64,000 nt of DNA, taken from positions 1 through 64,000 of the IMG/VR virus record IMGVR_UViG_3300025915_000014; one strand, given 5' to 3'. The first letter of the stretch is position 1. The number at the start of each line of letters is the position of its first letter. Source of the stretch: a virus. Its lineage: Duplodnaviria > Caudoviricetes. The notes beneath the pieces were generated by a model. The model searched no databases, had not been told where the DNA came from, and was given only the letters and a program-made list of their open reading frames with translations. Below, piece after piece: positions 12,924-46,323 of this stretch. A program made the position numbers and the translations under genes.

Positions 12924-12948
12924 CTATCGTGGGCGTGCCTAGCGGGGG

Positions 12949-13798: not shown

Positions 13799-13835
13799 GG
13801 GAGCCGTATAGCCCGCCCACCACAGGAGAAACCCC

Positions 13836-14189: not shown

Positions 14190-14191
14190 TC

Positions 14192-14419
14192 ATGGCCGCG
14201 GAGAAGCGGGAGCCGCCCACGACGATGCTCACTGCGACCGAGGCGCTCGCCTGGATAGCGACCCACGGCCACGACGACCGCATCAACGCGGGCCTCGAAT
14301 ACATGATCGGCGCGGGCTGGATGGATACCGGCCTCGACGAGGACGGCGAGCTGGTGTTCCGGCTCACCCCCTACGGCGAGCAGGAGCGCGCCAAGCTACT
14401 CGCCCGACACGACAACTAG
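14192..14419 (+). CDS. hypothetical protein
   Basis: Follows previous gene by 2 nt; ends at terminator. Confidence 0.7.
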   Translation: MAAEKREPPTTMLTATEALAWIATHGHDDRINAGLEYMIGAGWMDTGLDEDGELVFRLTPYGEQERAKLLARHDN

Positions 14420-14460
14420 GGGCGCGCCGCCGGGTCCCCGATGACCCCGGCGGCGCGCCC
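14420..14460. terminator. Bidirectional hairpin terminator
   Basis: 15-bp perfect stem GGGCGCGCCGCCGGG/CCCGGCGGCGCGCCC between convergent operons. Confidence 0.75.
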
Positions 14461-14495
14461 GGCGGCGGTGGGTCCGCTCCCCAGCGACCCTCCCG

Positions 14496-27870: not shown

Positions 27871-30800
27871 TCACCTCCCGTACCGTCCCGCCATGCGCCG
27901 CAGCCGGGCCTGGTGCATGGCGGTCTGGATGATGCGTTCCGCGGTCGCGTAGGGGGATGTGGTGACGTTCACGGTGAGGCCGGGGTCGCCGCCCATCCCG
28001 GCCGCCGCCATCAGCTCACTGCTGCGGCCGGGCCGGGTCAGCGGCAGCACCATCTCCGGGCCGGACTCGCCGAGCAGCCCGAACGTGGGGCGGGTGATGA
28101 TGCCGCCGTTGCCGTACCAGCCGTGGGCGCGGTGGAACGCCAGGGCCGCGTTCGGGTCGCCGTACTTGGTCTTGATGTAGTTGAGGCCCCACGCGGTCTG
28201 CCCGGCCACGGTCGGCTCGATCGGGCCGTGCAAGGAGGTCATCTTCTGGAACAGCCCGCGGGCGGAGCTGGTCTTGTTGGCCGCGTTCGGGTCCCAGTTC
28301 GACTCCAGGCGGATGATCTCGGCGAGGGAGTTCCATTCGCCGTCGGAGCCCCACCCGTAGCCCGCGGCCAGGCGTTGCACGGTGGCCTGCACCTCACCGC
28401 CCGGGATGTTCATCGGCGCCCCGCCGCCGCCGCCGTCCCCGCCGATGTGCCAGCGCTGGGTGAAGTACGGGTTCGTGGCGCCCCACGCGGCCGGGGTGCC
28501 GACCTGCACCCCGTGGCCGTGCCCGGACGACTCCACGTTGACGCCCAGCAGCGTGCCCGCCATGTGATCGTTCGGCTTGTTCCCGACTTGCAGCCCCGGG
28601 CCGAGCCCCGACAGGAACCCCGCCCACGGCATCGAGGCGGTGGTGCCGCGCCGCGAGTTCGGCGGCCGACCCTGCATCACGTTGAGGATCCCCGAGATGA
28701 ACCCGGAGCAGTCCCACGACGGGTTGCCGACCCCGCCCCACTGGTAGGGCTTGCCCTGCTGGGTGCGCGCCCAGTCCAGGGCGGCCTGCGCGTTCGCACC
28801 GCCGGAGAAGAGGTCGATGAGCTGCTTGGAGATGGCGATGACCATCGGCATCGCCGCCGCCGCCACCCGCAGCCCGGCGCCCAGCGACGCCGCCTCCGGG
28901 ATGTCCTTGAGCGGCTGATAGCCGCCGAGGAACAACCCGCCCCCGGCGAAGTGCTGCTCGGCGAAGGGCCGCATGACGTCGTTGACGCTGCGCCCGCTCG
29001 CGTGCATATCGGAGACGGCGTGGATGCCGCCCATGGCGGCGGAGGTGTTGGCCTTCTTGATGTAGTCGACCCCGACGGCGCGGGCCCACTCGGGGCGCAT
29101 GATGGCCTCGCCGCCGGACAGGTGCAGCACCCCGCCCGTGGGGGAGACGAAGGTGTGCACGTCCCGGCCGGGGGTGAACCCGGGCAGCGTCCCCCCGGTG
29201 TCGTAGCCGACGCCGGTCAGCCCCCCCGGCCCCATCTTGATCACGCCGCCGAGGGCGCCGCCGTGCGCGATGCGAACCAAGTCCGGGCCGCCGATGGCAC
29301 CGAAGTTGGTCATCTCGCCCATCTTCCCGTTGACGGTGATCCACACCGTCTTGTCGGGAAGGCCGGTGATCTGCGCGGCCATGTCCAGCAGCGCCTGCTT
29401 GACCGGGCCGTTCGCCTTGTCCGCGAGGCGTTGCAGCTCGTCCTTCTGCGCCTGCGCCTTCACCCCCGCGCTCGCGTGCGCGCCGCCGAGGTTGTCGAAG
29501 TTGGTCTTGGCGTCCAGCAACGCCCCGTGCAGGGGCCCGGTCACCTGGGCCGCGAGTTCGCCGAGCTTGTCCTTCTGGAGACCGGCTTGCAGCGTCGCGG
29601 TGTTCGACGCCGCCTTGGACACGTCGATGCCGTTCGCCATGTCCAGCAGCGCCTGCCGGGTCGGGCCGGTGGCCGCCGCCGCCAGCCGCAGCAGCTCATC
29701 CTTCTGCGCCTTCGCGGCCAGCTCGTCGCCGTTCGCCGCGCCCGCCGCGTCGGCGTCCGCCTTGGCCTTGTCCCCGGCCGCGCGGGCGACGTCGATGTCC
29801 GCCTTCTCGACGTCCCGGAACGCCCGCTCGGCTTCGGTGGACGCCGCCCCGTGATCGGCGACCGCCTTGGCCGCGGCGTCCTGCGCGTCCTTGAGTCGAT
29901 CAAGCGAGTCCTTGTAGGCAAGATCCTTGTCGACGATGTCGTTCTCGGCCCGCCACAGATCGAGAACCCGGTCGGTGTGGGTCTTGGTCGCGTCGGCGAC
30001 ATCCTTCTGCGCCGTCTTGAGATCTTCGCTGGCCTTCTGGAGCCGTTGGGAGGCGTCGATGGCCTGCGGCGACTTGTCGCCGTAGTCGCGCACGGCCAGG
30101 GTGTAGTTCTCCTGCTCGCGCCGCACGGTCGCGGTGGCGGCTTGCAGCGGCGGCATCTGGGCGATCTGCGCATCCATCGCCCCGAGCAGGTTCTTGATCG
30201 CTTCGGCGTGGGTGTCGGCCGCGGTGGCGGCGGTGTTGGTCTGCCCGGTGAGGTCGCCGATGCCGCGGCCGACCACCTCTCCTTCGCCGCCCAGCTCCTG
30301 CATGACGTTCGTCTGGTTTTGCAGGGCCGAAGATTCCTTGTCCACCGCCGCGGTCAGCGACAGCGACCCGTCCAGCACCGACTGCGCCAGCGCGTCGGAC
30401 TTGTCCTTCATCTGGTCGTACAAGACCATCAGCCCGACGACCGCGGCCCCGACGATCGGCAGGTACTTCCCGACCGAACCCAGCGCGGAGGTGAGCCGCC
30501 CCGAGGCCGTCTCCGACACACCGATGCTGGTCGCGAACCGCCCGAGGGTGACCCCGAGCGCGGTCACGGAGGCACCCACCACCTGGAAGCCCTTGAAGGC
30601 GAGCACGGCCGCGGTGACGGCCGGGCCGATCGGCCCGACGTTGTTCACGATGGCGATCGCGGCGGTCACGATGCCCTGCAACGGGGCCTGCAAGGTGTTC
30701 GCCTCGTCGGCCAGCGACTTGAGGGTCTTCCCGGCCAACTCGGTGATCACCGGTATCAGCGGCGCCACCACGGACGCGATATTGGAGAGCGCCGTGGCCG

Positions 30801-32679
30801 TCGCCTGCAACCCGCCGGTGTCCCCCGCGACCTTCAACGCGTTGAGGAGCTGTACCGCCAGCTCCTTCACCCCGGGCAGCAGGTTGTCGATGGTGTCGTT
30901 GATCGTCTTGAAGAACGAGGCCACCCCCGCCTGCCCGACGGGGGTCTTGAGCAGCTTGTCCAGCTCGCCGGTGATCTTCTCGACGTTGCTGAGGAAGTCG
31001 CCGCCGGACTGACCGGCCGCCTTGAAGACGGACACCAGGATGCCGCCGACGTTCCCGGCGATCTTCCCGAGCTGCTCGGTCCTGTCGACCGCAAGCTGCA
31101 TCCACTGCTGGAGCTGCCCGGTCTCCCTGGCATGATCCACGAACTCGCGGACCTTGGCGGTGGCGTTCGCGAACCCCTGCGCCAGGCCCGGCAGGAACCC
31201 GGACCCGACCGTCGCCAGATCGGTGAAGACCGCGACCACGTCGGTGACCGCGCTTCCCAGGAACCCGGTGCTCTTGGTGGTGTTGTCGAAGATCGCGGCG
31301 ATGTCGCGGCCGGTGGACGCCTTCGCGAAGAAGTCCCCGAGGGACTTCGCGACCCCGTTGAGCGACCCGGCCAGCCCGGTCATCCCGGTGTGCAGCACCG
31401 GGAGTTCCGTCGCCCCGAGCCGCTTGACGGTGTCGGACAGCCCCGCGAACAGGCGTTGCTGCACATCGACTTGCAGCGAGTCCCAGGCGGGTTTGAGCCC
31501 GCGCACCGCCAGCACCGTGTCCCGGGCGCTGGGCGCCAGCTTCGCCATCGCCTGCGCGAGCTGATCCGACGCCTTCGATCCGGTGGTCGCGGTCTGCTGG
31601 AGGGCCTGCGCCAACTGCCGCTGCGCATCCGAGACCTGCCGGGCCCCGTCGACCTGGGCCTGCTTGAGACCCTCCTGCGCGCTCTGCACCGAGCGGTTCG
31701 CGTCCTGCACGCCGCGCTGGGCCTGCACGACCTGCTTGCTGCCTTCGACCCCGGCGGCGTTGGCCTCTTGGGAGGCCTGCTGCACGTCCTTGTAGCGGTC
31801 GTGCGCCTCGGCCAACGCCTGGCTGGCCTCTTTGACCCCGAGCTCGGCCTCCCGTAGATCGAGCCCTTGCAGGCCCTTCGCGTGCGCCTCCGCGAGGTGC
31901 TGCTGCGCCCGTTCCAGGGCGATCTGCGCGGCCTCCTCCGAGATGGCCGCCCCGGACAGCGACAGCTTGAGATCTTCGAGGTCGGCCTTGGCCTGCTTGC
32001 GGGCCTGGTTGAGGTTCTCCTGCGCGTACTGGGCCTGCCGCTGGGCCTGCGCGAGGGTGTCCTCCGCGCCCGCCACCCGCCGGTTCGCCGTCTCCTGCGC
32101 GACCGCCAGACCTTCCTGCGCGGATCGGATCCGCTCGGCGATCTGGAGGCGCTGCGCCCCGGTCTGCGCCGCGGTGTCCGCCGCCGCCTTGTCCGCGGCA
32201 CCCATGGCCTTGAAGACCTCGGGGATGCCGGTCAGGCCGACCTTGAGCGTGGCGGCGACCGCGCCCGCCGCCGCCATCCCACCGGCCGCGACCCCCAGCA
32301 GCCCGGACAGGTCGGCGGCGGCCTGCGCGGCACTGATCAGGGTCGGGGCGAGCGCGACGATCCCCGCGGGCATCCGGAACGCCGCCAGGTTGCCCAACAG
32401 GCCGGTGATCTCCCGGAGCCGGTCACCTGCGGTGGGATCGACGTCGACCTTGGCGGTGGCGCGCTGCCCGTTGATGCGCCGCAACTGCTCCTCGACGGCC
32501 GCGAGCCGGGCCTCCGCCGCCGCGGTCTCGGCATCCACGTCGGCGCGGGCCCGGCGCCCGTCGATCCGATCAAGCCTCTCGGAGAGCCGTTCCAGCGTGC
32601 CCGCCAGGCCCTCGATGGCGGCGGCGGCGCGGGCGGTATTGGCGAGGATGTTGTAGCTCAGGTCGACCGTGCCAGCCAC
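27871..32679 (-). CDS. Tape measure protein with C-terminal NlpC/P60-like and lytic transglycosylase domains
   Basis: 1602 aa, Ala/Leu helical; GKPYQWGG...DCSG..H; ESNWDPNA.N..S.A.GLFQ...GL.YI...YG. Confidence 0.95.
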   Translation of the reverse strand: MAGTVDLSYNILANTARAAAAIEGLAGTLERLSERLDRIDGRRARADVDAETAAAEARLAAVEEQLRRINGQRATAKVDVDPTAGDRLREITGLLGNLAAFRMPAGIVALAPTLISAAQAAADLSGLLGVAAGGMAAAGAVAATLKVGLTGIPEVFKAMGAADKAAADTAAQTGAQRLQIAERIRSAQEGLAVAQETANRRVAGAEDTLAQAQRQAQYAQENLNQARKQAKADLEDLKLSLSGAAISEEAAQIALERAQQHLAEAHAKGLQGLDLREAELGVKEASQALAEAHDRYKDVQQASQEANAAGVEGSKQVVQAQRGVQDANRSVQSAQEGLKQAQVDGARQVSDAQRQLAQALQQTATTGSKASDQLAQAMAKLAPSARDTVLAVRGLKPAWDSLQVDVQQRLFAGLSDTVKRLGATELPVLHTGMTGLAGSLNGVAKSLGDFFAKASTGRDIAAIFDNTTKSTGFLGSAVTDVVAVFTDLATVGSGFLPGLAQGFANATAKVREFVDHARETGQLQQWMQLAVDRTEQLGKIAGNVGGILVSVFKAAGQSGGDFLSNVEKITGELDKLLKTPVGQAGVASFFKTINDTIDNLLPGVKELAVQLLNALKVAGDTGGLQATATALSNIASVVAPLIPVITELAGKTLKSLADEANTLQAPLQGIVTAAIAIVNNVGPIGPAVTAAVLAFKGFQVVGASVTALGVTLGRFATSIGVSETASGRLTSALGSVGKYLPIVGAAVVGLMVLYDQMKDKSDALAQSVLDGSLSLTAAVDKESSALQNQTNVMQELGGEGEVVGRGIGDLTGQTNTAATAADTHAEAIKNLLGAMDAQIAQMPPLQAATATVRREQENYTLAVRDYGDKSPQAIDASQRLQKASEDLKTAQKDVADATKTHTDRVLDLWRAENDIVDKDLAYKDSLDRLKDAQDAAAKAVADHGAASTEAERAFRDVEKADIDVARAAGDKAKADADAAGAANGDELAAKAQKDELLRLAAAATGPTRQALLDMANGIDVSKAASNTATLQAGLQKDKLGELAAQVTGPLHGALLDAKTNFDNLGGAHASAGVKAQAQKDELQRLADKANGPVKQALLDMAAQITGLPDKTVWITVNGKMGEMTNFGAIGGPDLVRIAHGGALGGVIKMGPGGLTGVGYDTGGTLPGFTPGRDVHTFVSPTGGVLHLSGGEAIMRPEWARAVGVDYIKKANTSAAMGGIHAVSDMHASGRSVNDVMRPFAEQHFAGGGLFLGGYQPLKDIPEAASLGAGLRVAAAAMPMVIAISKQLIDLFSGGANAQAALDWARTQQGKPYQWGGVGNPSWDCSGFISGILNVMQGRPPNSRRGTTASMPWAGFLSGLGPGLQVGNKPNDHMAGTLLGVNVESSGHGHGVQVGTPAAWGATNPYFTQRWHIGGDGGGGGAPMNIPGGEVQATVQRLAAGYGWGSDGEWNSLAEIIRLESNWDPNAANKTSSARGLFQKMTSLHGPIEPTVAGQTAWGLNYIKTKYGDPNAALAFHRAHGWYGNGGIITRPTFGLLGESGPEMVLPLTRPGRSSELMAAAGMGGDPGLTVNVTTSPYATAERIIQTAMHQARLRRMAGRYGR

Positions 32680-35594: not shown

Positions 35595-36434
35595 TCAGCC
35601 CACCTGCGGGGCTTTGGGTGTCAGGAGCTGCACGATCCGGTACGGGATGGCGGTGCGCGCGACACGCACCTCCATGGCCGCCTCGGAGCCGCCCCCGGCG
35701 CCGCCGCCGACCCGCGGGCGTCCGCTCGCGCCCTGCCGGTTGGACCACAGCCATTGCAGCAGGTACTCGATGCCGCCGCGGGTGGACTCGCTGACCACTG
35801 CGGGCCCGGCCACGTAGGTGACGCGGATCAGCCCCCACATGGCGGCCGGGCGCGCGCAGCGCAGGATGGAGAACTGGTCGGTCCAGATAGCGGGCGGCGC
35901 CACCGCCTCGATCACCGTCTGGTCGGGCTGGAGGCGTTCCATCAGGACCGGGCGGGCCACCGGCACGTTGGTCAGCCGGACCCCCTCATGCCAGCCGTAG
36001 GTGCGCAGCACCTCGACGAACGTGCGCCGCGCGATGATCTCCCCGGAGATGCCCTCCGCGACCTCGGTGGCGCGGACGATCTCGGTGGAGATGGCCCGGT
36101 CGTGGCGGGTGTCGCTGTCGGGGATGTTCAGGATGTCCTTGCCCTCGGCCAGCGACAGGATCCCGACCGCCCCGGTGAGGCTGGCGTAGAAGCTGCCCTC
36201 GTAGGTGACCGCGGGCTGCTCGAACTGCCAGACGTAGGTGTAGGTGCCGGGCAGCTCGGGGACGTAGTCGAGCTGGTAGTGCCCGGTGACCGCGGGCGGG
36301 TTCAGCACGTCCAGGGTGGTGGTGGTGTCGTCGGGCAGGGTGAGCACGAGGCTGGCGGTGACCGCGTTCATGGGCGCCCCGGTGTCGCTGGTGACCGACG
36401 TCCCGAGCCGCACTACCTGGCCCACGCCGCTCAT
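35595..36434 (-). CDS. Head-tail adaptor (gp6-like) with extra N-terminal Ig-like domain
   Basis: LSLAEGKDILNI...HD..I motif after an ~90 aa beta-rich domain; ATGA overlap. Confidence 0.75.
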   Translation of the reverse strand: MSGVGQVVRLGTSVTSDTGAPMNAVTASLVLTLPDDTTTTLDVLNPPAVTGHYQLDYVPELPGTYTYVWQFEQPAVTYEGSFYASLTGAVGILSLAEGKDILNIPDSDTRHDRAISTEIVRATEVAEGISGEIIARRTFVEVLRTYGWHEGVRLTNVPVARPVLMERLQPDQTVIEAVAPPAIWTDQFSILRCARPAAMWGLIRVTYVAGPAVVSESTRGGIEYLLQWLWSNRQGASGRPRVGGGAGGGSEAAMEVRVARTAIPYRIVQLLTPKAPQVG

Positions 36435-39400
36435 GCGTTCCCCCCGTCCCACCAGTCCGCGTGCGCAACATCGACAGTCTGACCCACGACGCCCGCCGTG
36501 CCGGGCTGTGACGCGCCCCCGGCTGCGCCCGGTGCCTGCGCGCCCATACCGGCCGCGGCGGGCACACGCGCGGGCAGGGCGCCCGCGGCGGGGGCGGTGA
36601 CGGCGAGCGCCCCAACCCGTCCGAACTGGACGAACTCGTGCACGACCAGCGCGCCGCCGCAGCCGCCGCGGGCCACCCCGGTGCCGGTGACGCGCCGCGG
36701 GTTGACGTGCAGCCCGCCGCCGGGCGCACCGTCCGCCGCCGCGGTACCGGTACGGGGCCGCACCATCACCCGCGGCCCGGACGCGACCACGGAGGCGACC
36801 CCGCCGCCGGTCTTGGTGTGCACGGTGTGCGCGACGAAGACCTTGAGCCCGCCCGGGGCGCCCGTCGCCGCCGCGGTCCCGGTGCGCGGCCGGGTCATGC
36901 TCTCGGTGCCGCCCGCGCCGCCGCGGGCCGCCGCGGTCCCGGCCCGGTTCAGGATCGAGCCCGAGCGCCGCCCGTCCGGCGCACCAACCGCGGCGGCCGT
37001 CCCGGTCTTGGCGATGACGCCCGCAGACAGCACCACCCGGGCACCGGAGGGGGCCCCGGCGGCGGCGGCCGTCCCGGTCTTGGTGTGCACCGTCGCCCTG
37101 GCGCCACCCGGGGCGGCCTCGGCTGCGGCGGTGCCCGTCTTGCCGTGCACAGTCGACTTGGCACCGCCGGGGGCGCCCGCGGCGGCGGCCGTGCCGGACT
37201 TGAGGGCCGCGCCCGCGGACTGGACGACCTTGGCGCCGGACCCGACCGCAGCTCCGGCCGCCGTCCCGGCCTTGACGATCACCGCGGCGCTGGTGACCTG
37301 CTTGGCGCCGCCGGGCGCGCCGACCGCGGCGGCCGTGCCCAGTGCAGTGCGCACCGCCGCGGACGTGACGACCTTCGCCCCGCCGGGCGCACCGACCGCA
37401 GCGGCGGTGCCCGCCTTGACAACAGCCCCCGCGCCCTGCACGGCCTTGGCACCGCCCGCGGCGGCGGCTGCGGCCGCGGTGCCGGTACGTGGCCGCACCA
37501 TCGACTCGGTCCCGCCCGGAGCGCCCACTCCGGCCGCGGTGCCCGTCTTGGCGTGCTCAACCGTGCGGGCGCCGCCCGCGGCAGCTCCTGCGGCGCCCGT
37601 CCCGGCCTTGGTGATGGTCCCGGCCGATGTGACCGTCTTGGCGCCGCCCGGGGCCCCGACCCCGGCCGCGGTCCCGGCCTTGGTGATCGTGGTCGCCGAC
37701 GTGACCGTCTTCGCCCCGTTGGCTGCGAGCGCACCCGCGGCCGTGCCCGTCTTGGTGACCGTGAGCGCCGACGTGACGGTCTTCGTCCCGCCCGGCACGC
37801 CGACCGCGACACCTGCACCGGCCTTGAGGATCTGCCCGGCCGTCTGGACGACCTTGGCTCCGCCCGGTGCACCCACCCCGGCTGCGGTGCCCGCCTTGGT
37901 GACGACGATCGCCGAGGTGACGACCTTCGCGCCGTTCGCCGCGCATGCTCCGGCCGCGGTCCCGGTCTTGCGGTGCTCCAGGGTGCGGGCCCCGTTGGCG
38001 GCGGCGGCCGTGGCGCCAGTACCGGTCTTCTGGTGATCGGCGGTGTGCGTGCCGCCCGGCGCGCCCGCGGTTGCCGCCGTGCCCGTCTTGCGGTGCTCGG
38101 TTGTGCGGGCCCCGTTGGCCGCCGCCGCCGTGGCCGAGGTTCCCGTCTTCTGGTGGTCGACGGTGCGGGCCCCGTTGGCGGCGAGCGCCCCCGCCGCGGT
38201 GCCCGCCTTGACGATGGCCCCGGCCGACTGCACGGCCTTCGGCCCGCCCGGCGCACCGACCCCGGCCGCCGTGCCGGTCTTCGTGTAGACGGCCGCGGAG
38301 GTGACGGCCTTCGCGCCACCCGGGGCGCCCACCCCGGCACCGGCACCCGTCTTGGGATGCTCGACCGCCTTGGCGCCGTTGGCTGCGGCAGCCGACGCCC
38401 CCGTGCCGGTCTTCGGGTGCTCGACCGCCTTGGCACCGTTCGCGGCTGCCGCCGAGGCCCCGGTGCCCGCCTTGGCGTGATCCGTGGTGCGAGCACCATT
38501 GGCGGCTGCCGCCGACGCCCCGGTGCCCGTCTTGCGGTGCTCGATGGCCCTCGCGCCGCCGGGGGCGCCGACACCCGCGCCCGTCCCGGCCTTGGTGACG
38601 GACACGGCCTTGGCGCCGTTCGCCGCCGCCACACCCGCCGCCGTGCCCGTCTTGCGGTGCTCGGCCGCCTTGGCTCCGCCGGGGGCCCCGACCGCTGCGC
38701 CGGTGCCCGCCTTGGTGTACGTCGTCGCCGACGTGACCGTCTTCGGTCCGCCCGGCGCGCCCGTCGGGACCCCGGCGCCGGTCTTGCCGTGCTCCACGAC
38801 CTTCGGGCCGCCCACCGCGCCGCCGCCGACGCCGGTACCGGTCTTCGTCGACACCACCGGCGCCACACCCGCGGTGGCGGTCACCAGGGCGGCGACCCCA
38901 CCGAACTGGCTGGTCGAGCCGTTGGTCTGGGTGGGTGCTATCGCGCCCGCCCCGGAGGTGAGCCCGTAGCACCACTCGTCGGCGCTCGGGGTGAACACGA
39001 ACCCCGCCGGGGTGCCGGTGGCCGTCGGGGTGCCCGCACTGACCGAGCCCCGCCCGAAGTACAGCTCGCCCGCGCCCGCCGCCGTCACGCTCGGCCACGG
39101 CAGCGTGGTCGTGGTCGAGCTCGTCTCGGAGGTGCCCGCCGCGCCGTCCTGCGCCCAGGTGGCGGCCGTGCCGAGGGTGAACTCCTGCGGGAAGTAGCTC
39201 AGCACCTTGGCCGACATGTCCGCCGACCAGGTCGCGGTGACCGTCCCCCCGGTCACGGTGCTGGTCACGGTGCCCAGCCACACCTCATAGCAGCGGCCCC
39301 GCGCCGCCGACCCGAACCGGCCCAGGTTGGTCCAGGTGCAGCCGCCGCCGGACAGCCCGGTGACCGTGGCGGTGGCCGAGTTCGCGCGGATCCCGACCAG

Positions 39401-40963
39401 CACCGCGTTCCCAATGGCCGTAGTCGTGATCGGGAAGGTGAGCGCGGCGGTGGTGTCCGCGACCCCGGCCATGGACCCGACGGGGGTGATCCCTGCGCCG
39501 GTGACGACCTTGGCGCCGCCCATGCCGCTGCCGCCGCCGCAGCCGCCGGTCTTGATGTAGGTCGCCGTCGCGGTGGGTGGCGGGAGCACCACCTCCGCGG
39601 CGATCCACCCGTTGACGGTGATCCCGGCCGGGGTGGGGGTGACGGTGCGGGTGCCGGTCGCCCCGGCCGCCGGGATCGTCTCGACGTACACCGCGGACAT
39701 CGAGTACAGCGCCCCGGCCTGCACCTGCGTGAGCAGCGTGGCGGTCGGGTAGGCCTCGGCGGTGCCGTTGCAGTCGGTGCCGAACGTACTCAGCAGTAAC
39801 CCGTTCGCGACGCCGGTGGTCGTCGGCGCGGTCTGCGCCATCGCCGCGATGCGGGCCTGCACCGTCCACGCCGAGAACACCGCCGGGGTCCCGACGTTGT
39901 AGGTGCCCGCCTGCAACGCGACCGCGATGCCCGTCCCGTCGGAGGCGGTGGTCGAGTTGAAGGTGAACTGGGAGGCGGCGACCTCGGTGGCGGTCGCGAC
40001 AATCCCCCACGCCTTGACGCCCGGCGAGTTGTTCGCCGAGTTCGCGGCCTGCGCGGACAGCTGTCCGAACCCGGACGGCGCGGTCATGCTCGCCGGGACG
40101 TCGTCGGCGTCACCGTACTGGAGCACCAGCAGGTAGTCCCCGACCGCCAGCCCGGCCGGTTTCGGGACGGTGAACGACGGCTGCCCGGCCGCGGACTTGC
40201 TGCCGACCGCGTAGGAGCGGATGACGGGCATGACGCGGTCGTCGAACGTCCCCGGCCACGGCTTGGGCTGACTGGTCGGTCCGAGGAACAGGCCCGGCGG
40301 GAAGAACGACTGCGGCGCCGGGTTCGGGGCCGCGGCGGGCAGCACCTCGACGGCGACCAAGCCCCAGTCGTCGTTGGTGAAGGTGTAGGACATCGTGACG
40401 GTGCCGCCGGTGGACGGCGACGTGGACCCGCAGCCGTTCCCGGCACCCGAGTTGGAGTCCCCGGACTTCTGCCAGCGCAGGGTCTGCCCGGATCCGGTGG
40501 CGGTGTAGGTGGTGACCGCGCCCGACGCCATGGCGTCGATCACCAGGCCGCCGCTGGTCGTCCCGGTCACCGCCAGCGACGACGACGCCTGCACGGCACC
40601 GAAGTTCTTGAATACGGTCCCCAGCGCCCCGCCGCCGGTGACCGACACCGAGCCAGCGTTCATGGTCTTGCCGCTGGACGCCGGAGTGAGCACCACCGTG
40701 GACGCGCCCGCCGGTGGGTTGTTCAGCACGAACAGCGCCGCGAAACCACTCGTGCTGTTGGCCGAGTTCTGACGGCCCAGCAGCGTCATCGCCACGCCGC
40801 CATAGGTGGCCGTCGGGTCCGCCACGGGTGTTCCGCCGACCGCGCACGCCACGAGCACGTGGCTACAGCCCGCGCCCGCGGTGTGCGTCCAGCTCAGCGA
40901 GTTGCCGGAGAGGACGCCCGCACCTGCCGAGCTAGGGCCGACAGCATCGAAGAGGACGGCCAT
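36431..40963 (-). CDS. Large fibre-like structural protein (1510 aa) with tandem repeats
   Basis: Three beta-rich modules then about 33 K(T/A)GT..GAPGG/AANG repeats. Confidence 0.85.
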   Translation of the reverse strand: MAVLFDAVGPSSAGAGVLSGNSLSWTHTAGAGCSHVLVACAVGGTPVADPTATYGGVAMTLLGRQNSANSTSGFAALFVLNNPPAGASTVVLTPASSGKTMNAGSVSVTGGGALGTVFKNFGAVQASSSLAVTGTTSGGLVIDAMASGAVTTYTATGSGQTLRWQKSGDSNSGAGNGCGSTSPSTGGTVTMSYTFTNDDWGLVAVEVLPAAAPNPAPQSFFPPGLFLGPTSQPKPWPGTFDDRVMPVIRSYAVGSKSAAGQPSFTVPKPAGLAVGDYLLVLQYGDADDVPASMTAPSGFGQLSAQAANSANNSPGVKAWGIVATATEVAASQFTFNSTTASDGTGIAVALQAGTYNVGTPAVFSAWTVQARIAAMAQTAPTTTGVANGLLLSTFGTDCNGTAEAYPTATLLTQVQAGALYSMSAVYVETIPAAGATGTRTVTPTPAGITVNGWIAAEVVLPPPTATATYIKTGGCGGGSGMGGAKVVTGAGITPVGSMAGVADTTAALTFPITTTAIGNAVLVGIRANSATATVTGLSGGGCTWTNLGRFGSAARGRCYEVWLGTVTSTVTGGTVTATWSADMSAKVLSYFPQEFTLGTAATWAQDGAAGTSETSSTTTTLPWPSVTAAGAGELYFGRGSVSAGTPTATGTPAGFVFTPSADEWCYGLTSGAGAIAPTQTNGSTSQFGGVAALVTATAGVAPVVSTKTGTGVGGGAVGGPKVVEHGKTGAGVPTGAPGGPKTVTSATTYTKAGTGAAVGAPGGAKAAEHRKTGTAAGVAAANGAKAVSVTKAGTGAGVGAPGGARAIEHRKTGTGASAAAANGARTTDHAKAGTGASAAAANGAKAVEHPKTGTGASAAAANGAKAVEHPKTGAGAGVGAPGGAKAVTSAAVYTKTGTAAGVGAPGGPKAVQSAGAIVKAGTAAGALAANGARTVDHQKTGTSATAAAANGARTTEHRKTGTAATAGAPGGTHTADHQKTGTGATAAAANGARTLEHRKTGTAAGACAANGAKVVTSAIVVTKAGTAAGVGAPGGAKVVQTAGQILKAGAGVAVGVPGGTKTVTSALTVTKTGTAAGALAANGAKTVTSATTITKAGTAAGVGAPGGAKTVTSAGTITKAGTGAAGAAAGGARTVEHAKTGTAAGVGAPGGTESMVRPRTGTAAAAAAAGGAKAVQGAGAVVKAGTAAAVGAPGGAKVVTSAAVRTALGTAAAVGAPGGAKQVTSAAVIVKAGTAAGAAVGSGAKVVQSAGAALKSGTAAAAGAPGGAKSTVHGKTGTAAAEAAPGGARATVHTKTGTAAAAGAPSGARVVLSAGVIAKTGTAAAVGAPDGRRSGSILNRAGTAAARGGAGGTESMTRPRTGTAAATGAPGGLKVFVAHTVHTKTGGGVASVVASGPRVMVRPRTGTAAADGAPGGGLHVNPRRVTGTGVARGGCGGALVVHEFVQFGRVGALAVTAPAAGALPARVPAAAGMGAQAPGAAGGASQPGTAGVVGQTVDVAHADWWDGGNA
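36660..38850 (-). repeat. Coding tandem repeats of 60 or 72 nt (20 or 24 aa)
   Basis: e.g. KTGTGASAAAANGAKAVEHP and KAGTAAGVGAPGGAKTVTSAGTIT. Confidence 0.9.
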
Positions 40964-40983
40964 CGCTCAGCCCCCGCCCGGAT

Positions 40984-41520
40984 CTAGTTGACCAGGCGGA
41001 CGTCCAGGTAGTGGCACAGCCAACTACCGGTGGTGACGCTGGGCGTGACGCCGATCCGGACCGTGTTGTTGATCGTCGAGTCGAAGGTGAGCACCGTCGG
41101 CGCGGTCGCCGGAGCCAGGTCCGTCAACCCGGTGGTGATGTTGGATATCTCGAAACAGCCCAGGATCGACGCGGCGGTACCGGCGCCCTGCGCGCGCATC
41201 GACGCGTTGCCCTCCAGCCGCCAGGTGCGGTTGGTCTGCGACGCCTGCACGGCTATCGCGGCGGTGACCGCGATGGCCTGCCCGGCGGCGATGGCACCGG
41301 TGCCCAGGTACACCCCCATCACGAGGGTGCCGGGGGTGGCGGTGGAGGTGAAGCGGCCGAACGCGACGACCTCCATCCGGGTGGCGATCAGCAGCTGGTT
41401 GCTGCTCAGCACGATCGGCGGCGGTGGGGAGATGTCCCCGAGTGCGGCGGTGCCGGTGTACGCGGTGCCGTCCGCGATGCCGAACGGCGCAACCGCCGAC
41501 ACCCACGACTGGTTGCCCAT
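40984..41520 (-). CDS. Beta-rich structural-region protein
   Basis: Thr/Ala/Gly-rich, in head-neck cluster. Confidence 0.75.
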   Translation of the reverse strand: MGNQSWVSAVAPFGIADGTAYTGTAALGDISPPPPIVLSSNQLLIATRMEVVAFGRFTSTATPGTLVMGVYLGTGAIAAGQAIAVTAAIAVQASQTNRTWRLEGNASMRAQGAGTAASILGCFEISNITTGLTDLAPATAPTVLTFDSTINNTVRIGVTPSVTTGSWLCHYLDVRLVN

Positions 41521-41709
41521 CTATGCCACCGTGAAGGCGTCGATCAACCAGACGATGGTGACCAGGGCCAGGCCGAGCGCCACGAAGTGCACCCGGGTGT
41601 TCCAGCCGCCCGCACCGTCCGGGCGGGCGGTGCCCGCGTAGGCGCCCAGCAGGAAGCACACCAGCGCCGCGATCAGCAGCACGATCTTGATGATCTGGCC
41701 GGTGCCCAT
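41521..41709 (-). CDS. Small two-TM membrane protein
   Basis: Two hydrophobic helices; SD GAGGGGGG. Confidence 0.7.
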   Translation of the reverse strand: MGTGQIIKIVLLIAALVCFLLGAYAGTARPDGAGGWNTRVHFVALGLALVTIVWLIDAFTVA

Positions 41710-41719
41710 GGCACCCCCC

Positions 41720-42031
41720 TCAGTCGGTGATCCCGGGTACGTGCAGGCGCCCGCGCGTGTGGGGGATCTCGTCGCGGACCTGGTCCGGGTTCGCCCCCGG
41801 GTAGGCGTCCTCCGGGGTGTCCCACTCCGCCCAGCCCGCCGACCGGCGGATCAGGTTCGCCCGCCGCCAGCAGTTCCGGCAGCACGGCAGCCCCTCCCAG
41901 ACGGGCACCGAGTGCGCGTTCCCGACGAACCGGTGCCCGCAGCCGCCGCAGCGCAGCGTCGCCCACAGCGGCGCCCGGCGCCCCGGATGGATACCCGGGG
42001 CGCGCAGGGTGTGCCCGCCGAGCTGGGTCAA
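41720..42031 (-). CDS. Cys-rich hypothetical protein
   Basis: CGGC...CCRNC; overlap with upstream gene. Confidence 0.6.
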   Translation of the reverse strand: MTQLGGHTLRAPGIHPGRRAPLWATLRCGGCGHRFVGNAHSVPVWEGLPCCRNCWRRANLIRRSAGWAEWDTPEDAYPGANPDQVRDEIPHTRGRLHVPGITD

Positions 42032-42486
42032 GGCAGCAGCCCGAACGTCGGCGTCACCTTGATCACGTCACCGATCGCCATCGTCGCGACCGCGGTGACG
42101 TCGTCGAAGTTGGCGTAGAAGATCCCCTTCTCGGAGCCGTGCCCGGAGATGTCACACAGCCCGAAGAAGTTGATCGCCGTCGCGTAGGACGCGCCCGCCG
42201 CCGCGAACGACACCTGCGCCGCCCCGGTCTGGCGGCCACCCGCGGCGTTCCCGGACCCGGCGGCCTGCGCCGCCCACGACGCCGCCGCGATCGACACCCG
42301 CGCGTAGGAGGTGTAACCGGCCTCGGCGACACCCGTGTAGGTGCCCAACACCGCGGTCTGCGCCGGGACCGTGGACGCGGTCGCCCCGGTGCACAGCAGC
42401 AGATAGGTGGTGGTGACGTTCGTCCCGCCGCGCGGGAAGATCCCCAGGATGAGGTCCAGGCCCTCGTTCGGAATGACCTCAGCCAT
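42028..42486 (-). CDS. Virion structural protein (E..YAR-motif family)
   Basis: EAGYTSYARVSI; resembles 25369..25842. Confidence 0.75.
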   Translation of the reverse strand: MAEVIPNEGLDLILGIFPRGGTNVTTTYLLLCTGATASTVPAQTAVLGTYTGVAEAGYTSYARVSIAAASWAAQAAGSGNAAGGRQTGAAQVSFAAAGASYATAINFFGLCDISGHGSEKGIFYANFDDVTAVATMAIGDVIKVTPTFGLLP

Positions 42487-42706
42487 CGACCCGCTCCCAG
42501 TCCCTCGACAGTTCGACTTCGGTGAGCCCGGCCGCGACCCCCATGCCCGAGCCGTCGTCCCACTCCAGGACCAACGTCCCGTAGTGCGCGGCGTCCTGAT
42601 CGTTCGGATCGACCTGCCGCACGAACGCCACCGCATCGGGCGGGAAGATCGCGTACTGGGTCACGCCGCTGGTGTTGCGGTAGCGGTCGCCCTCTTTCAC
42701 GCTCAT
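42479..42706 (-). CDS. hypothetical protein
   Basis: ATGA overlap with rpf stop. Confidence 0.65.
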   Translation of the reverse strand: MSVKEGDRYRNTSGVTQYAIFPPDAVAFVRQVDPNDQDAAHYGTLVLEWDDGSGMGVAAGLTEVELSRDWERVDG

Positions 42707-43371
42707 CGGATCGTCAGCCTCTCCCCGGGGAAGATCAGGTTGGGACAGCCGGAGCGGTAGCCGTGAAGCTGCGCTACCCGGATGTGGTGTGCCCGCGCGA
42801 TGGAGGACAGCGTGTCCCCGGCCTTCACGCGGATCGAGGCGTGCGACAGCGCGACGGGTGCGCGCCGTGGCGCCGTGCGGGCGGCCACCACGGCGCGCGG
42901 CTTCGGCTTGACGGCGACGACCGGGGCGGGCTTGGACGCGGCGACCCCGCGAACCTGTACCGGGCCCCCCGCCCGTGCCGACCAGCAGGGCTGCGTGGCG
43001 AGCCAGGGTTGGGTGCCGCGCGCATCCAGCAGCAGCCCGGCCCGCTGGATCTGCTCCGCGGCGGTCGCGTTCAGCGGGTTCCCCGACCCGCCCACCGACC
43101 GCCACGTCGGCAGATCGAATTGGAACAACCCGAAGTGCGTGCCGTTGGACGCCTGCGGGTTGCCGCCCGACTCGCAGTGCGCGATGGCTCCCAGCACCGC
43201 GCGGTCCGCGACGGCCGCGGACGCCACATCGGTGAACGCCAGGCTGCCCGGCACCGCGAGCAGCGCCCCCCCGGCCAGCGCCACGCGCATGCGGGGACGG
43301 CCCGGCGGTGGCGGCGCCCGATGCCGCCCGACGACGGCGCGGTGCCGCCCCTCGTAGGTCCGGTCGGTCAT
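42703..43371 (-). CDS. rpf: Resuscitation-promoting factor (Rpf transglycosylase + LysM), secreted
   Basis: GRHR leader, signal peptide ..VASA-A, AIAHCESGGN...GLFQF...TW..VGG...A.AAEQ...A...G..PW..C; LysM VKAGDTLSSIA...PNLIFPGE.L. Confidence 0.9.
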   Translation of the reverse strand: MTDRTYEGRHRAVVGRHRAPPPPGRPRMRVALAGGALLAVPGSLAFTDVASAAVADRAVLGAIAHCESGGNPQASNGTHFGLFQFDLPTWRSVGGSGNPLNATAAEQIQRAGLLLDARGTQPWLATQPCWSARAGGPVQVRGVAASKPAPVVAVKPKPRAVVAARTAPRRAPVALSHASIRVKAGDTLSSIARAHHIRVAQLHGYRSGCPNLIFPGERLTIR

Positions 43372-43778
43372 GTCACCTGTCCCGATCCGGGGCCCGAGCG
43401 GAGCAGGAACACCGCGCCGATGGTGCCGCCGGTGGTGGCGCCGGTGGTGTTGATGACCGCCCGCAGCCACCGCCGGGGCAGCGTGTCGAGCGCCAGCCGG
43501 TAGGTGGCGTTGCCCTGCGGGGTGCCCAGCGCCGGGATGGATCCCTGGGTCTGCCCCGCGTAGGGCTGCCAGTTGGTCGAGCCGTCGTCGGAGTCCTGCA
43601 CGGTGATCGCATTGGATCCGTCGGTGACCGCCCCGGCGGACACGACGAGCATCCCCACCCGGAACGGGCCACCCCCGGCGACGGTGTCCACCGGGGTGCC
43701 GTTGACCACGCCGTTCGCCCGTACCGCGGGCGGCAGCGTCAGCCGGGCCCCGGTGTCGTCGTACATCGAGTCGCGCAC
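43368..43778 (-). CDS. Putative capsid decoration/cement protein
   Basis: Beta-rich, VQDSDDGSTNW, RWLRAV pattern; near capsid gene. Confidence 0.7.
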   Translation of the reverse strand: MRDSMYDDTGARLTLPPAVRANGVVNGTPVDTVAGGGPFRVGMLVVSAGAVTDGSNAITVQDSDDGSTNWQPYAGQTQGSIPALGTPQGNATYRLALDTLPRRWLRAVINTTGATTGGTIGAVFLLRSGPGSGQVT

Positions 43779-43779
43779 G

Positions 43780-44130
43780 TCAGACCTCGCTCGCGCTGGT
43801 GGCGGCCGGGGCCGCCGCCGGTGTGGGTGGAGGAGCGGCCCCGGCCCCCGACTTGCTGCGCGGCGGTGTCGCCCGCGCCATGCTGCGCCGCTCACCAGGC
43901 GCGGCCGTGGCCGTCTCGCTGGCCCCCGCGTAGGAGGCCAGCGGACGGCGGATGACGGACGAGTCACGCACCAGCAACGGCCGGAACATGTCCGGGAAGC
44001 GGACCACGATCTCATCGGTGGCCGGGAAGACGTCCCCCGGCCCGACCGCGTAGGGCACCAGCCCGTCACGGTCCAACGAGCAGGAGAAAGCCTGCTTGGC
44101 CTGCATCATCACCGGCGCCTCGCCCGCCAT
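43780..44130 (-). CDS. hypothetical protein (post-capsid)
   Basis: ORF track; start could be 44109. Confidence 0.65.
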   Translation of the reverse strand: MAGEAPVMMQAKQAFSCSLDRDGLVPYAVGPGDVFPATDEIVVRFPDMFRPLLVRDSSVIRRPLASYAGASETATAAPGERRSMARATPPRSKSGAGAAPPPTPAAAPAATSASEV

Positions 44131-44145
44131 CCGCCTAGATCACCA

Positions 44146-44535
44146 TCACTCGTCTTCGTCGCCGCGACCGAGCTGCCCGGTCGAGCGCATGCCAACCGGT
44201 TCCCCCGGTCCGCGCGCGGTCGCCTCCTCGAACTCTGCGGAGTTGTCCTCGGCGTGCTCGGCGAAGTGCCCGACCTCCGGGCCCGCGAACTGCTGCGGCT
44301 TGAGCGGTCCCGGCGCCTGCGGGCGCTGGTCCCCGGTGCGGTTGTCCAGCCGCGGGTCCACCCCGAGCGCCTCCAGCTCGGCCGCCGCCTCGGGCGTGGT
44401 GCCCGCCGCGCGCCGCTTGGCGTCCAGTGCGGCACCCGATAGCGCGCCGCCGGACTTGCCGCTCGACTTCGAGGTCGCCGGGGTGCTCGCCGGAGGCTTG
44501 GTCGTGCCCGTGCTGCTGGTGCTGCTTTCGCTCAT
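44146..44535 (-). CDS. Low-complexity hypothetical protein
   Basis: SD AGGAGG after capsid stop. Confidence 0.7.
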   Translation of the reverse strand: MSESSTSSTGTTKPPASTPATSKSSGKSGGALSGAALDAKRRAAGTTPEAAAELEALGVDPRLDNRTGDQRPQAPGPLKPQQFAGPEVGHFAEHAEDNSAEFEEATARGPGEPVGMRSTGQLGRGDEDE

Positions 44536-44543
44536 CAGTCCTC

Positions 44544-46277
44544 CTAGGCCTTGAGCATGCGGAAACCGGCGTCGTTGATCGAGTCGGCGCCGTGGCGGAC
44601 GTACGCGAGCCAGCCGCGCTGCCCGGTGGGACGACCGAACCCGGCCCCAGCAGTGGTCTGCTGGAACAGGTGAGGGATGAACTCCATCGTCATGCCGATG
44701 CGGTCGGCGATGACGTAGTTGGAGAAGTCACCGAAGATCATGACGTAGTCGGTGCCCGCGGCGATGGTGCCGTCCATGTCCTCGGCCTCATATGCGGGCC
44801 GGTTGAGCAGCCGCTGCGGCCGGTCCCCGGCCAGCGCACCCCACAGCTCGTAGGTGGTGCCGAACGCGCGGATCATGTTGTAGATGAGGTTGTTCGCCAG
44901 CCAGGAGGCGTTGCGCCGGTACCGGGCAGGCAGCGAACCGTGGATCTTGTAGACGTCGGCGAGGGCGAGCGCGGTATCCGAGGCCGTGGTGACCTCGCTC
45001 GCGCCGCCGGTCAGCGCGGCCACGATCCCCGTCGGCATCGCCACGCCAGAGCCGATGGCGAACGCCGAAGACTCCAGAATGTCCTTGCCCTCGGCCATCA
45101 GCATCGCCACATCGGCGGTCACGTTCGCCGCGTCCTGGATCGCCTCCAGGGAGATCGGCACGAAGCCCTGCGCCTTGTAGATCGGGATATTCGGGCTCGC
45201 GAACGTGGTGGAGTCGTCGGAGACCTGGCTGGCCTCCGCGTCGTAGCTCCACGCCACTGCACCCGAGGAGATCCCGTTCCACACGTCGCCGATCGCGACG
45301 ACCTGCCGGGCCGCCTGCCGGATCTCGTTCACTGATCCATTCGCTGTAAGCACCACGGTTGGATCAAGCTGGAACGGCACCAAATATCCACCGGCCGAGT
45401 CGGTCAGGGACATCGCGCGGGTCTGCCGGGCCACATGCGACACCGTCGCCATGGCCTCGCGCTCGGCGACGGACAGGTTCGCGACCCGGTCGCCGCCCTT
45501 GAAGACCTTGCACCAACCCCGCAGGTAATCGGGCTGGCTCAGGGCCAGCATGAAGCGGGCCAGGTTGCCGTCCTCGTCATCCCACCGCTCGATGATCTGC
45601 GTGGAGGCCTGCCGCACGGCGTCGGTGGTGCCCGGCAGTCGCTCGCACGCGGACAGCGCGCGGGAGTGCCACTCACGGGACACCGCATCCGGGTCCCGCC
45701 CGAACGTGCGGACCTCGTCAAAAGCCCACGGGTTGCGGTAGCGGTGATCCTCGATCGAGTCCGGCTCCATGATGACGTCGCGGTCGTACCCGACCGAGGC
45801 GTCGTGGTTGCCGCGCCCGGGGCGGCGGTCGAACGCGCCGCGCTCCGCCCGCAGGTACCCGGAGGCGTTCAGCCCGTCGGTGGTCTGCCGCACCGCGGCC
45901 AGGGCGGCATCCCGCTCCAGGCGGCGGCGGTGCCCATCGACCTCACCGAACTCGGTCTCCAGCTCACGGAAGTAGGCGTCATCCTGCTCGCTGGGTGTAT
46001 CGAGCTCGGCGATGGCCGCCATCTGCGTGCGCAGATCATGCAGCCGGTTGATCGCCTGGCTATGGGTGAGGGTCGGCCCGCGGCGCTGCCCATCGCCGTC
46101 CCGGTCCGGGTCGGCATTGCCGCCGCCCGCCGGGGGCGCCGGGGCGTCCACGGTGCGGTCGCCGCCAGCGATCGGGTAGATGGGTGCACCGTTGCTCCGG
46201 TAGCCGAGCACGGTGCCGGGTGCGTTCCTGATGTAGCCGGTGCCGATCGCGGTCCGGCCCTTGTCCTCCGCCGTCAT
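44544..46277 (-). CDS. Major capsid protein, HK97 fold with long N-terminal scaffold (delta) region
   Basis: GGYLVP, FGDFS.YVI.DR.G, R.G.D motifs; N-terminal coiled coil. Confidence 0.93.
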   Translation of the reverse strand: MTAEDKGRTAIGTGYIRNAPGTVLGYRSNGAPIYPIAGGDRTVDAPAPPAGGGNADPDRDGDGQRRGPTLTHSQAINRLHDLRTQMAAIAELDTPSEQDDAYFRELETEFGEVDGHRRRLERDAALAAVRQTTDGLNASGYLRAERGAFDRRPGRGNHDASVGYDRDVIMEPDSIEDHRYRNPWAFDEVRTFGRDPDAVSREWHSRALSACERLPGTTDAVRQASTQIIERWDDEDGNLARFMLALSQPDYLRGWCKVFKGGDRVANLSVAEREAMATVSHVARQTRAMSLTDSAGGYLVPFQLDPTVVLTANGSVNEIRQAARQVVAIGDVWNGISSGAVAWSYDAEASQVSDDSTTFASPNIPIYKAQGFVPISLEAIQDAANVTADVAMLMAEGKDILESSAFAIGSGVAMPTGIVAALTGGASEVTTASDTALALADVYKIHGSLPARYRRNASWLANNLIYNMIRAFGTTYELWGALAGDRPQRLLNRPAYEAEDMDGTIAAGTDYVMIFGDFSNYVIADRIGMTMEFIPHLFQQTTAGAGFGRPTGQRGWLAYVRHGADSINDAGFRMLKA

Positions 46278-46323
46278 CGGCGTCTCTCCCGCGTACTAGG
46301 AGGGCACCCCCTCCGCGGAAGCG

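Follow-up and report, generated by a model that had tools for sequence, protein, structure and literature searches.

What use would a phage have for a secreted enzyme of the only family of proteins that is known to bring actinobacteria out of dormancy? That family is the resuscitation-promoting factors (Rpfs), and the question is raised by a gene on the minus strand (42703–43371) of IMG/VR virus record IMGVR_UViG_3300025915_000014, the source of which is an uncultivated soil actinomycete phage. The record is 82.5 kb long (71.7% G+C content, GC; approximately 91% complete), and the window analysed here is the part of it from position 1 to position 64,000. The product of the gene, P0001, carries an Rpf domain followed by a peptidoglycan-binding LysM domain. 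An earlier note on this DNA had proposed that it is a stand-alone 'wake-up' factor, encoded in the late head operon and secreted or released to wake dormant cells or spores nearby. The analysis finds a real, intact and conserved gene, the predicted product of which belongs to a phage clade of its own, and which is carried as accessory cargo among the head and neck genes. Whether the enzyme wakes other cells or loosens the wall of the infected one is weighed below.

Architecture of the Rpf-LysM protein

The open reading frame (ORF) comprises 222 codons with a stop-free translation. An alternative upstream start is present (GTG, 43470); the ATG at 43371 is preferred because the homologues start at the same M..GRHR sequence. 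P0001 matches the Pfam family PF06737 (Transglycosylase-like, Rpf) over residues 55–124 (E = 1.1e-13; score of 52 bits, threshold 27) and the LysM family PF01476 over residues 181–202 (E = 3.4e-7; score of 30.5 bits, threshold 20.9), the latter match covering model positions 2–23 only. This LysM domain is the sole one in the virus record. Among PDB sequences the best match is RpfE (4cge; E = 1.7e-9), followed by RpfC and RpfB (down to 1e-3), and residues 179–221 align with the LysM domain of MltD (1e0g; E = 0.003). An AlphaFold (AF2) model built on 17 homologues has predicted local distance difference test (pLDDT) values above 90 over the Rpf domain and of about 90 over the LysM domain. The modelled Rpf domain is best matched in Foldseek by RpfC and RpfE, with template-modelling (TM) scores of 0.75–0.84 and root-mean-square deviations of 1.3–2.2 Å, and the modelled LysM domain has a β-α-α-β arrangement that matches LysM folds (TM scores of 0.65–0.77).

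The N-terminal leader contains the sequence GRHR twice (residues 8–11 and 15–18) and precedes a 17-residue hydrophobic core rich in Ala, Gly and Leu (residues 30–46; mean Kyte–Doolittle value of 1.8 over 15 residues, read from the sequence), after which there is an A-S-A site of the signal-peptidase type. Neither a twin-arginine (Tat) motif nor a lipobox was seen on inspection of the translation by eye. The CESGG motif at residues 66–70 aligns with that of RpfE and RpfC, making E67 the catalytic Glu, and C66, E67, S68 and G70 are invariant in an alignment of 17 sequences (A1). The second Cys, C129, is kept across the phage-clade homologues in this alignment, and C66 and C129 can form the predicted Rpf disulfide. 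Sequence and model together contain the sequence and fold features of the Rpf family, namely a domain and fold match, the Glu of the C-E-(S/A)-G-G motif, two Cys residues and an export signal; muralytic activity and the stimulation of growth or resuscitation in dormant actinobacteria are the functional marks of the family. The RpfA-like architecture described in the earlier note (GRHR leader, signal peptide, CESGG Glu, second Cys and LysM) is borne out by the Pfam, PDB, fold and alignment results alike. P0001 is very probably an exported, wall-bound glycosidase of the Rpf type, an activity predicted from its sequence.

The same parts are found in Micrococcus luteus Rpf and Streptomyces coelicolor RpfA: a signal peptide, an Rpf domain with the Glu and two Cys residues, a low-complexity linker and a C-terminal LysM domain. 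The GRHR-type leader is also common to P0001 and cellular actinobacterial homologues. The phage protein has 222 residues against the 244 of S. coelicolor RpfA (PMC11356341).

The gene is under purifying selection. The ratio of nonsynonymous to synonymous substitution rates (dN/dS) against its orthologues is 0.37–0.49, like that of its neighbours, and the six variants found in soil metagenome contigs comprise four synonymous and two conservative changes. Near-identical low-depth fragments of the stretch 41500–46300 were found in Logan contigs from 24 soil, rhizosphere and mine metagenome runs with 24 study codes (four of these runs gave low-depth fragments), and the phage or its close kin seems to be widespread in soils. 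The stretch occurs in public contigs of soil, rhizosphere and mine DNA, with no RNA run listed among their sources.

A phage clade apart from cellular Rpfs

A tree of the Rpf domains of 122 proteins, 12 of them from large cellular contigs (for example Kribbella and Actinomycetospora), places P0001 in a 54-member clade with a Shimodaira–Hasegawa-like approximate likelihood-ratio test (SH-aLRT) support of 96. All 12 of these cellular proteins fall elsewhere in the tree. The clade contains all of the proteins verified in phage DNA contexts, and the Rpfs of the cultured phages BRock and Grayson stand outside it. All ten members that were examined in their contigs lie among phage genes, no member is on a contig longer than 97 kb and the closest homologues of P0001 are all on metagenomic contigs. 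A search of cellular genomes (185,579 species, one genome each) gave no close copy of P0001, the best full-length match being 38% identical. The earlier note had suggested a phylogeny against host RpfA, and the tree sets P0001 in a phage clade apart from the cellular proteins.

A hydrophobic core and an A-x-A site precede the Rpf domain in every clade member (54 of 54), and 39 of them have a GRHR-type leader. The neighbourhood of the active site reads GNPxASNGxHFGLFQFD in the clade, compared with the canonical GNWxxNTGNGYYGGLQF. Unlike cellular Rpf and RpfA, P0001 is phage-encoded, falls in a separate clade, has the FGLFQFD active-site neighbourhood and shares at most 38% full-length identity with cellular proteins. 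The clade is one of stand-alone phage Rpf-LysM proteins, exported as judged from their signals, that is separate from the cellular Rpfs.

The phages that carry clade members have GC contents of 52–72%, and the GC content of the Rpf gene tracks that of each phage over a range from 44 to 75%, which speaks more for a long history in phages than for a gene picked up lately. A recent origin from a host was considered and rejected on this ground and for want of a close cellular copy. The Rpf gene lies 0.5–4.5 points above the GC content of its locus in every phage examined (the window, L002, L003, L005, L007, L008, L011, L012, L014, L016 and L076–L078), with locus values of 41–72%.

Rpf domains have been described in phages in two settings. 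The motif occurs in tape measures, and that of TM4 promotes, in experiments, the infection of stationary-phase cells (PMC1796659). In some cluster A mycobacteriophages, such as Hammer (gp13), PF06737 is the central domain of Lysin A, with a peptidase domain on its N-terminal side and a domain for wall binding on the other (PMC3314691). P0001 shares with TM4 motif 3 a catalytic domain family in an actinophage; the TM4 motif, however, is inside a virion structural protein, lacks a signal peptide and acts at entry, whereas P0001 is stand-alone, has a LysM domain and is predicted to be exported. With Lysin A it shares a domain family that actinophages use for lysis (PMC3314691), but P0001 has a single catalytic domain, an export signal and a coexisting GH25 endolysin; no report of a signal peptide was found for Lysin A.

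Stand-alone proteins are also found in cultured phages, where their annotations go no further than transglycosylase, hydrolase or hypothetical. A tblastn search with gp43 of Streptomyces phage BRock matched 183 of 50,697 phage records, mostly mycobacteriophage tape measures. The statement in the earlier note that phage Rpf motifs are known mainly from tape measures is incomplete, since the motif is also found in Lysin A (PMC3314691) and in the stand-alone proteins BRock gp43, GiJojo gp174 and Grayson gp46. In BRock gp43, a signal peptide is combined with a canonical Rpf domain and a LysM domain, and the endolysin gene is 1 kb away; gp43 follows gp44 (signal peptide and NlpC/P60), and gp44, gp43 and the endolysin gp40 are within 2 kb (the signal peptides of gp43 and gp44 were read from the translations). 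GiJojo gp174 has the same arrangement as BRock gp43, and gp46 of Rhodococcus phage Grayson, whose neighbours are genes of nucleotide metabolism, joins a signal peptide to an Rpf domain. Like P0001, these are stand-alone phage proteins that bear an Rpf domain behind a signal peptide, to which the BRock group adds LysM and an adjacent secreted NlpC/P60 protein. They differ in being of the canonical cellular type, 30–33% identical to P0001, and in their genomic contexts. Because they group with canonical cellular Rpfs, outside the 54-member clade, secreted Rpfs have been acquired by phages at least twice. They are the closest functional analogues of P0001 and are experimentally tractable. In the full-text literature (with subscription journals outside the coverage of the search), no study of a stand-alone Rpf secreted from a phage gene came to light. 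The type of gene is thus already present in cultured phages, and what is new here is a phage clade of its own and a placement in the head–neck cargo.

Gene neighbourhood, cargo region and other wall enzymes

The gene is one of a string that runs on the minus strand from terminase to tail (Table 1). Terminase, portal, protease, the HK97-type capsid protein, a 129-residue protein, the head–tail connector (phrog_9538) and a 136-residue protein precede Rpf-LysM. Proteins of 75 residues, Gp80-like, 103, 62 and 178 residues follow, then the 1510-residue repeat protein that resembles a fibre and the adaptor (phrog_442). Past the adaptor lie the tail tube, the tape measure and the tail and fibre genes, and last the GH25 endolysin with its holin. 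The translational coupling to both neighbours claimed in the earlier note is seen as two ATGA overlaps: the stop codon of the 136-residue gene (43368–43370) overlaps the Rpf ATG (43369–43371), and the Rpf stop codon (42703–42705) overlaps the next ATG (42704–42706). No promoter- or terminator-like site was found on the minus strand in this string between 36 and 52 kb, in agreement with the proposed placement in a late structural gene string. Because of this placement, Rpf-LysM is probably made late in infection; that it is also strongly expressed is a supposition of the earlier note.

Table 1. Features of the Rpf-LysM gene and of its surroundings in the window.
Feature	Position	Strand	Evidence or remarks
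Rpf-LysM gene, P0001, 222 residues	42703..43371 including stop codon	−	ORF, Pfam, PDB, fold
N-terminal leader (GRHR twice) and signal peptide	43213..43371	−	Core, residues 30–46; A-S-A at about residues 50–52
Rpf lysozyme-like catalytic domain, residues 55–136	42964..43209	−	PF06737, PDB matches, fold
Pro/Lys/Ala/Val-rich linker, residues 137–177	42841..42963	−	Low model confidence; lengths differ between homologues
Divergent LysM peptidoglycan-binding domain, residues 178–222	42706..42840	−	Partial Pfam match, MltD LysM, fold
136-residue all-β protein gene upstream of Rpf	43368..43778	−	phrog_5707 (unknown function); 63–78% identical in L002/L003
75-residue acidic protein gene downstream of Rpf	42479..42706	−	No family match; kept beside Rpf in L002 and L003
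Head–tail connector, 116 residues; upstream edge of variable cargo region	43780..44130	−	phrog_9538, 1.8e-10; resembles Gordonia phage Madeline gp7
HK97-type major capsid protein	44544..46277	−	PF05065, 1e-35; phrog_10
Gp80-like (fibre-associated) protein, 152 residues	42028..42486	−	PF23140, 1.5e-6
62-residue protein, two hydrophobic stretches	41521..41709	−	No family match; 82% identical in L002
1510-residue Gly/Ala/Thr-repeat fibre-like protein, variable region	36431..40963	−	No Pfam or PHROG match
Head–tail adaptor, 279 residues; downstream edge of variable cargo region	35595..36434	−	phrog_442, 2.2e-8
Tape measure, 1602 residues, short NlpC/P60 and SLT motifs (entry enzyme)	27871..32679	−	Motif matches
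Canonical GH25 endolysin, 333 residues	16004..17005	−	PF01183, 1.5e-17; phrog_3084, 2.5e-56
Holin, 204 residues	15383..15997	−	phrog_9752, 4.5e-10; weak Phage_holin_9 match

The surrounding genes are shared with three related phages (L002, L003/L006 and the contig of P0130), which have the same local order around Rpf and capsid proteins 77–87% identical to that of the window. Identity to P0001 is 68% for the Rpf of L002 and 52% for that of L003/L006. A further relative, L079, has a capsid protein that is 63% identical and the same terminase-to-capsid and adaptor genes, with other genes between them and no Rpf. The Rpf gene thus lies in a variable cargo region between the connector and the head–tail adaptor genes. 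In the window (35595–44130, minus strand) this region holds Rpf, the Gp80-like and small genes and the 1510-residue repeat fibre; in L079 the equivalent place (7128–15754) holds unrelated small genes and a 1794-residue protein with a weak alginate-lyase match. Its absence from L079 marks the Rpf gene as accessory cargo and not as a structural gene. 'Head operon' gene is accordingly correct as to location, among head and neck genes, and not as to function.

The nearest named relatives of the capsid protein are in Micromonospora and Actinoplanes prophages, a weak lead to Actinoplanes or Micromonospora as the host; both are sporulating genera.

An entry enzyme and an exit pair are encoded elsewhere in the genome. 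The tape measure carries an NlpC/P60 motif (residues 1309–1335; 23.7 bits, barely above the cut-off) and an SLT motif (residues 1446–1482), and would be the virion-borne wall enzyme of this phage, one of another kind than the Rpf motif found in the tape measures of mycobacteriophages. The holin and the GH25 endolysin are encoded 26 kb from Rpf-LysM. Since muralytic motifs are present in the tape measure and an endolysin–holin pair is also encoded, Rpf-LysM is not the enzyme used for entry, nor is it the principal one for exit; it is a third wall enzyme of the phage.

The 82.5-kb record yielded neither a tyrosine nor a serine integrase, and the 64-kb window no tRNA. A prophage or lysogenic-conversion reading of the gene was set aside on account of the missing integrase, which in a record that is about 91% complete is not proof. 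A ydaO-type riboswitch is known upstream of host rpfA. The window contains no match to any Rfam family, including this one, and regulation of the host type was likewise rejected for the phage gene; unlike host rpfA, it has no riboswitch and no promoter of its own was found.

The 136-residue protein encoded upstream was called 'cement-like' in the earlier note. One of its look-alike clusters in ESM Atlas has 13% of members carrying Bbp16, the cement family of BPP-1. It has no Pfam match, belongs to a PHROG family of unknown function and gave a poor AF2 model (pLDDT of 51). A Bbp16-like capsid cement protein is possible, as a lead only. Downstream of Rpf, a 103-residue Cys-rich protein (41720–42031, minus strand; CGGCG...CCRNC) is 69–74% identical in L002/L003, has no family match and may bind zinc. 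In the interval 40984–41709 a plus-strand ORF (41030–41641; GC content at third codon positions of 0.95) competes with the minus-strand ORFs of 178 and 62 residues, leaving the coding strand ambiguous. The minus strand is supported for the 62-residue part because this two-helix protein is 82% identical in L002; the 178-residue ORF has no match in L002 or L003. Among the tail genes, a 1092-residue protein (22077–25355, minus strand) has an alginate-lyase domain at residues 243–463 (PF08787, E = 3.9e-19), which is unusual for a phage of high-GC actinomycetes. The 1794-residue neck-region protein of L079, with its weak PF08787 match, is 35% identical to the first 200 residues of this tail protein.

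Placement of a clade member in the head–neck cargo region, as here, is unusual. Outside the lineage of the window, the Rpf gene is usually at the junction of the tail-fibre and lysis genes. In L011 it lies 86 bp after an r1t-type holin gene and in L078 one gene after a holin, in both cases with Amidase_2 and NlpC/P60 genes 3–4 kb upstream. In L077, the genes downstream of Rpf encode a LysM-polysaccharide lyase, a homologue of the holin of the window at a distance of 1.8 kb and, 3 kb away, an Amidase_2 lysin. Rpf comes after tail fibres in L012, L076 and the contig of P0017, and directly after an NlpC/P60 gene in L005, L007 and L008 (52–54% GC), with a GH25 lysin about 5 kb away. The NlpC/P60 and Rpf genes have a start/stop overlap in L007 and L008. 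Such pairs lie at 5051–6591 in L007, 5183–6702 in L008, 7264–8714 in L005 and 4377–5459 in L014 (BRock); by analogy, the pair would be a phage copy of the host RipA–Rpf partnership. A Gp80-like gene is also near Rpf in the unrelated phages L005 and L076, and about 180 residues of the 1510-residue protein (509–684) are 29–32% identical to large fibre-like proteins encoded beside Rpf in L005, L007 and L008. Wherever a lysin could be recognized in the sequenced flank of an examined phage, it was encoded in addition to Rpf.

Possible roles of the exported enzyme

We favour, at about even confidence, a role for P0001 as an exported accessory enzyme that loosens the wall. The pre-protein would be exported by Sec and its signal peptide cut after the A-x-A site, giving a mature enzyme of about 170 residues that would fold outside the membrane, where the two Cys residues could form the Rpf disulfide. 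The LysM domain would hold the enzyme on peptidoglycan while the Rpf domain, with Glu67, would cleave the backbone between N-acetylmuramic acid (MurNAc) and N-acetylglucosamine (GlcNAc). It would act first on the wall of the infected cell from outside, helping the endolysin to open a thick or non-growing wall, and after the burst it may act on the walls of neighbouring cells. The late expression, the export and cleavage, the enzymatic activity and the biological role of P0001 are what we infer; the molecular steps are drawn from the anatomy of the protein and from established knowledge of the family (PMC11356341, PMC12090717).

Three considerations lead us to this role: most phage wall hydrolases serve exit or entry, genes of the subfamily are repeatedly found next to those for holins, lysins, NlpC/P60 proteins and fibres, and a place in the virion is improbable on the grounds given below. 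Several points weigh against it. The lysis linkage is seen only in relatives, the gene of the window being far from its holin and endolysin genes, and the junction of tail-fibre and lysis genes is a common landing place for unrelated accessory genes. With a full holin–endolysin pair present, the need for a lysis helper is not obvious. The muralytic activity of cellular Rpfs is weak, and growing cells secrete these proteins and do not lyse; the stand-alone Rpf of Grayson, from a different clade, keeps company with genes of nucleotide metabolism and not of lysis. The expression, export and activity of the clade members, moreover, are read from their sequences.

If the enzyme serves exit, it might do so as the main endolysin. 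P0001 differs from a canonical holin-dependent endolysin in having a signal peptide and in its distance from the holin and GH25 genes. Of the features of a secretory endolysin it has the signal and the muralytic domain; placement in a lysis cassette is absent here and present in L011, L077 and L078. Lys44 of Oenococcus phage fOg44 is a Sec-exported endolysin with a cleavable signal peptide that reaches the wall before the holin acts. Endolysins of this kind are, as far as is known, the only endolysin of their phage and lie in the lysis cassette, whereas here a canonical holin–endolysin pair is present and the Rpf gene is 26 kb away. In a signal-anchor-release (SAR) variant, Rpf-LysM would be exported in advance and activated when a small membrane protein, such as that of 62 residues (41521–41709), collapses the membrane potential. 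The hydrophobic core is indeed rich in Gly and Ala, the conserved two-helix protein is encoded 1 kb downstream (82% identity in L002) and some relatives have Rpf directly after the holin. We nevertheless consider such a main endolysin very unlikely, given the strong GH25 endolysin (phrog_3084, 2.5e-56) with its adjacent holin, the lysin that accompanies Rpf in the other phages and the lack of a holin-family match for the 62-residue protein; the conserved A-x-A site, too, argues for cleavage and not for release of a signal anchor. An enzyme of the virion, decorating capsid or neck or ejected to digest the wall at entry, would fit a gene that lies between connector genes beside possibly cement-like and Gp80-like genes and is coupled to both neighbours. 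The cleavable type of signal peptide found throughout the clade (54 of 54), however, would take the protein away from the site of virion assembly, the cytoplasm. The gene is stand-alone, is missing from L079 despite a similar head module and lies outside the head genes in other lineages, and the tape measure already carries muralytic motifs. With the signal conserved and the gene gained and lost in this way, decoration of the virion, which the earlier note had offered as its other option, is highly improbable.

The remaining readings concern dormancy. In the earlier note, infected cells secrete or release Rpf to wake dormant neighbours or spores. By itself or together with an endopeptidase, such an enzyme would free muropeptides or remodel the walls of these cells, which would grow again or germinate and become productive hosts for the progeny. 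P0001 has the Rpf and LysM architecture of M. luteus Rpf and Streptomyces RpfA (PMC11356341). Resuscitation by M. luteus Rpf requires its catalytic Glu and its linker plus LysM, the latter two having been deleted together (PMC12090717), and the Glu and LysM are kept in P0001. The export signal is conserved across the clade, a third role is plausible where entry and exit enzymes are already present, and the phage is from soil, with its nearest named capsid relatives in prophages of spore-forming genera. RipA and RpfB degrade the wall synergistically and their joint product revives dormant mycobacteria (PMC11356341), a pairing that the NlpC/P60 and Rpf genes of the relatives mirror; because the cellular pair does both, such a pairing is expected of a lysis helper and of a wake-up factor alike. 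Host rpf genes are up-regulated throughout infection by Rhodococcus phage WC1, which its authors suggest prevents dormancy (PMC10986025). Against a wake-up factor, the catalytic domain of the clade has diverged (GNPxASNGxHFGLFQFD), so that resuscitation activity is not simply transferable from canonical Rpfs, and LysM would tend to retain the enzyme on the wall debris of its producer. The case is made by analogy with cellular Rpfs, and the position of the subfamily at the tail-fibre/lysis junction in most other lineages, beside holin, endolysin and fibre genes, makes a role in lysis or wall conditioning at least as likely. We regard a wake-up factor as unlikely. The WC1 transcriptome (PMC10986025) also bears on an autocrine variant, in which exported Rpf would keep wall turnover and growth signalling active in a slow or starving infected host, preventing dormancy before the phage has finished. 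Export and retention by LysM on the producer's own wall would suit this variant, the Rpf of Grayson lies among early or metabolic genes, and the architecture and the existing entry and exit enzymes fit it and a wake-up factor equally well, nothing in the analysis setting either apart from the helper role. A gene in a late structural string, however, would leave little time for a physiological effect before lysis, and we give the autocrine variant only a slight chance.

Actinobacterial populations in soil are dominated by dormant cells and spores, in which phages replicate poorly. For the question of how soil phages deal with dormancy, a conserved exported phage Rpf offers a concrete and testable handle; since the cultured BRock and Grayson groups carry analogous genes, the question of its role is accessible to experiment. 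It may be, although we think it improbable at present, that a widespread phage-specific Rpf-LysM clade lets soil actinophages manipulate the dormancy of their hosts, with an enzyme made late and freed at the burst reviving dormant cells or setting off the germination of spores close to the lysed cell, and so turning a refractory seed bank into susceptible hosts. Even if P0001 is only the lysis helper that we favour, it would stand beside the tape-measure motif and the endolysin as a third class of wall enzyme in actinophages, and would also suggest that phages copy the RipA–Rpf pairing of their hosts. Such enzymes could, in addition, be tried as an aid to growing soil actinomycetes that resist cultivation.

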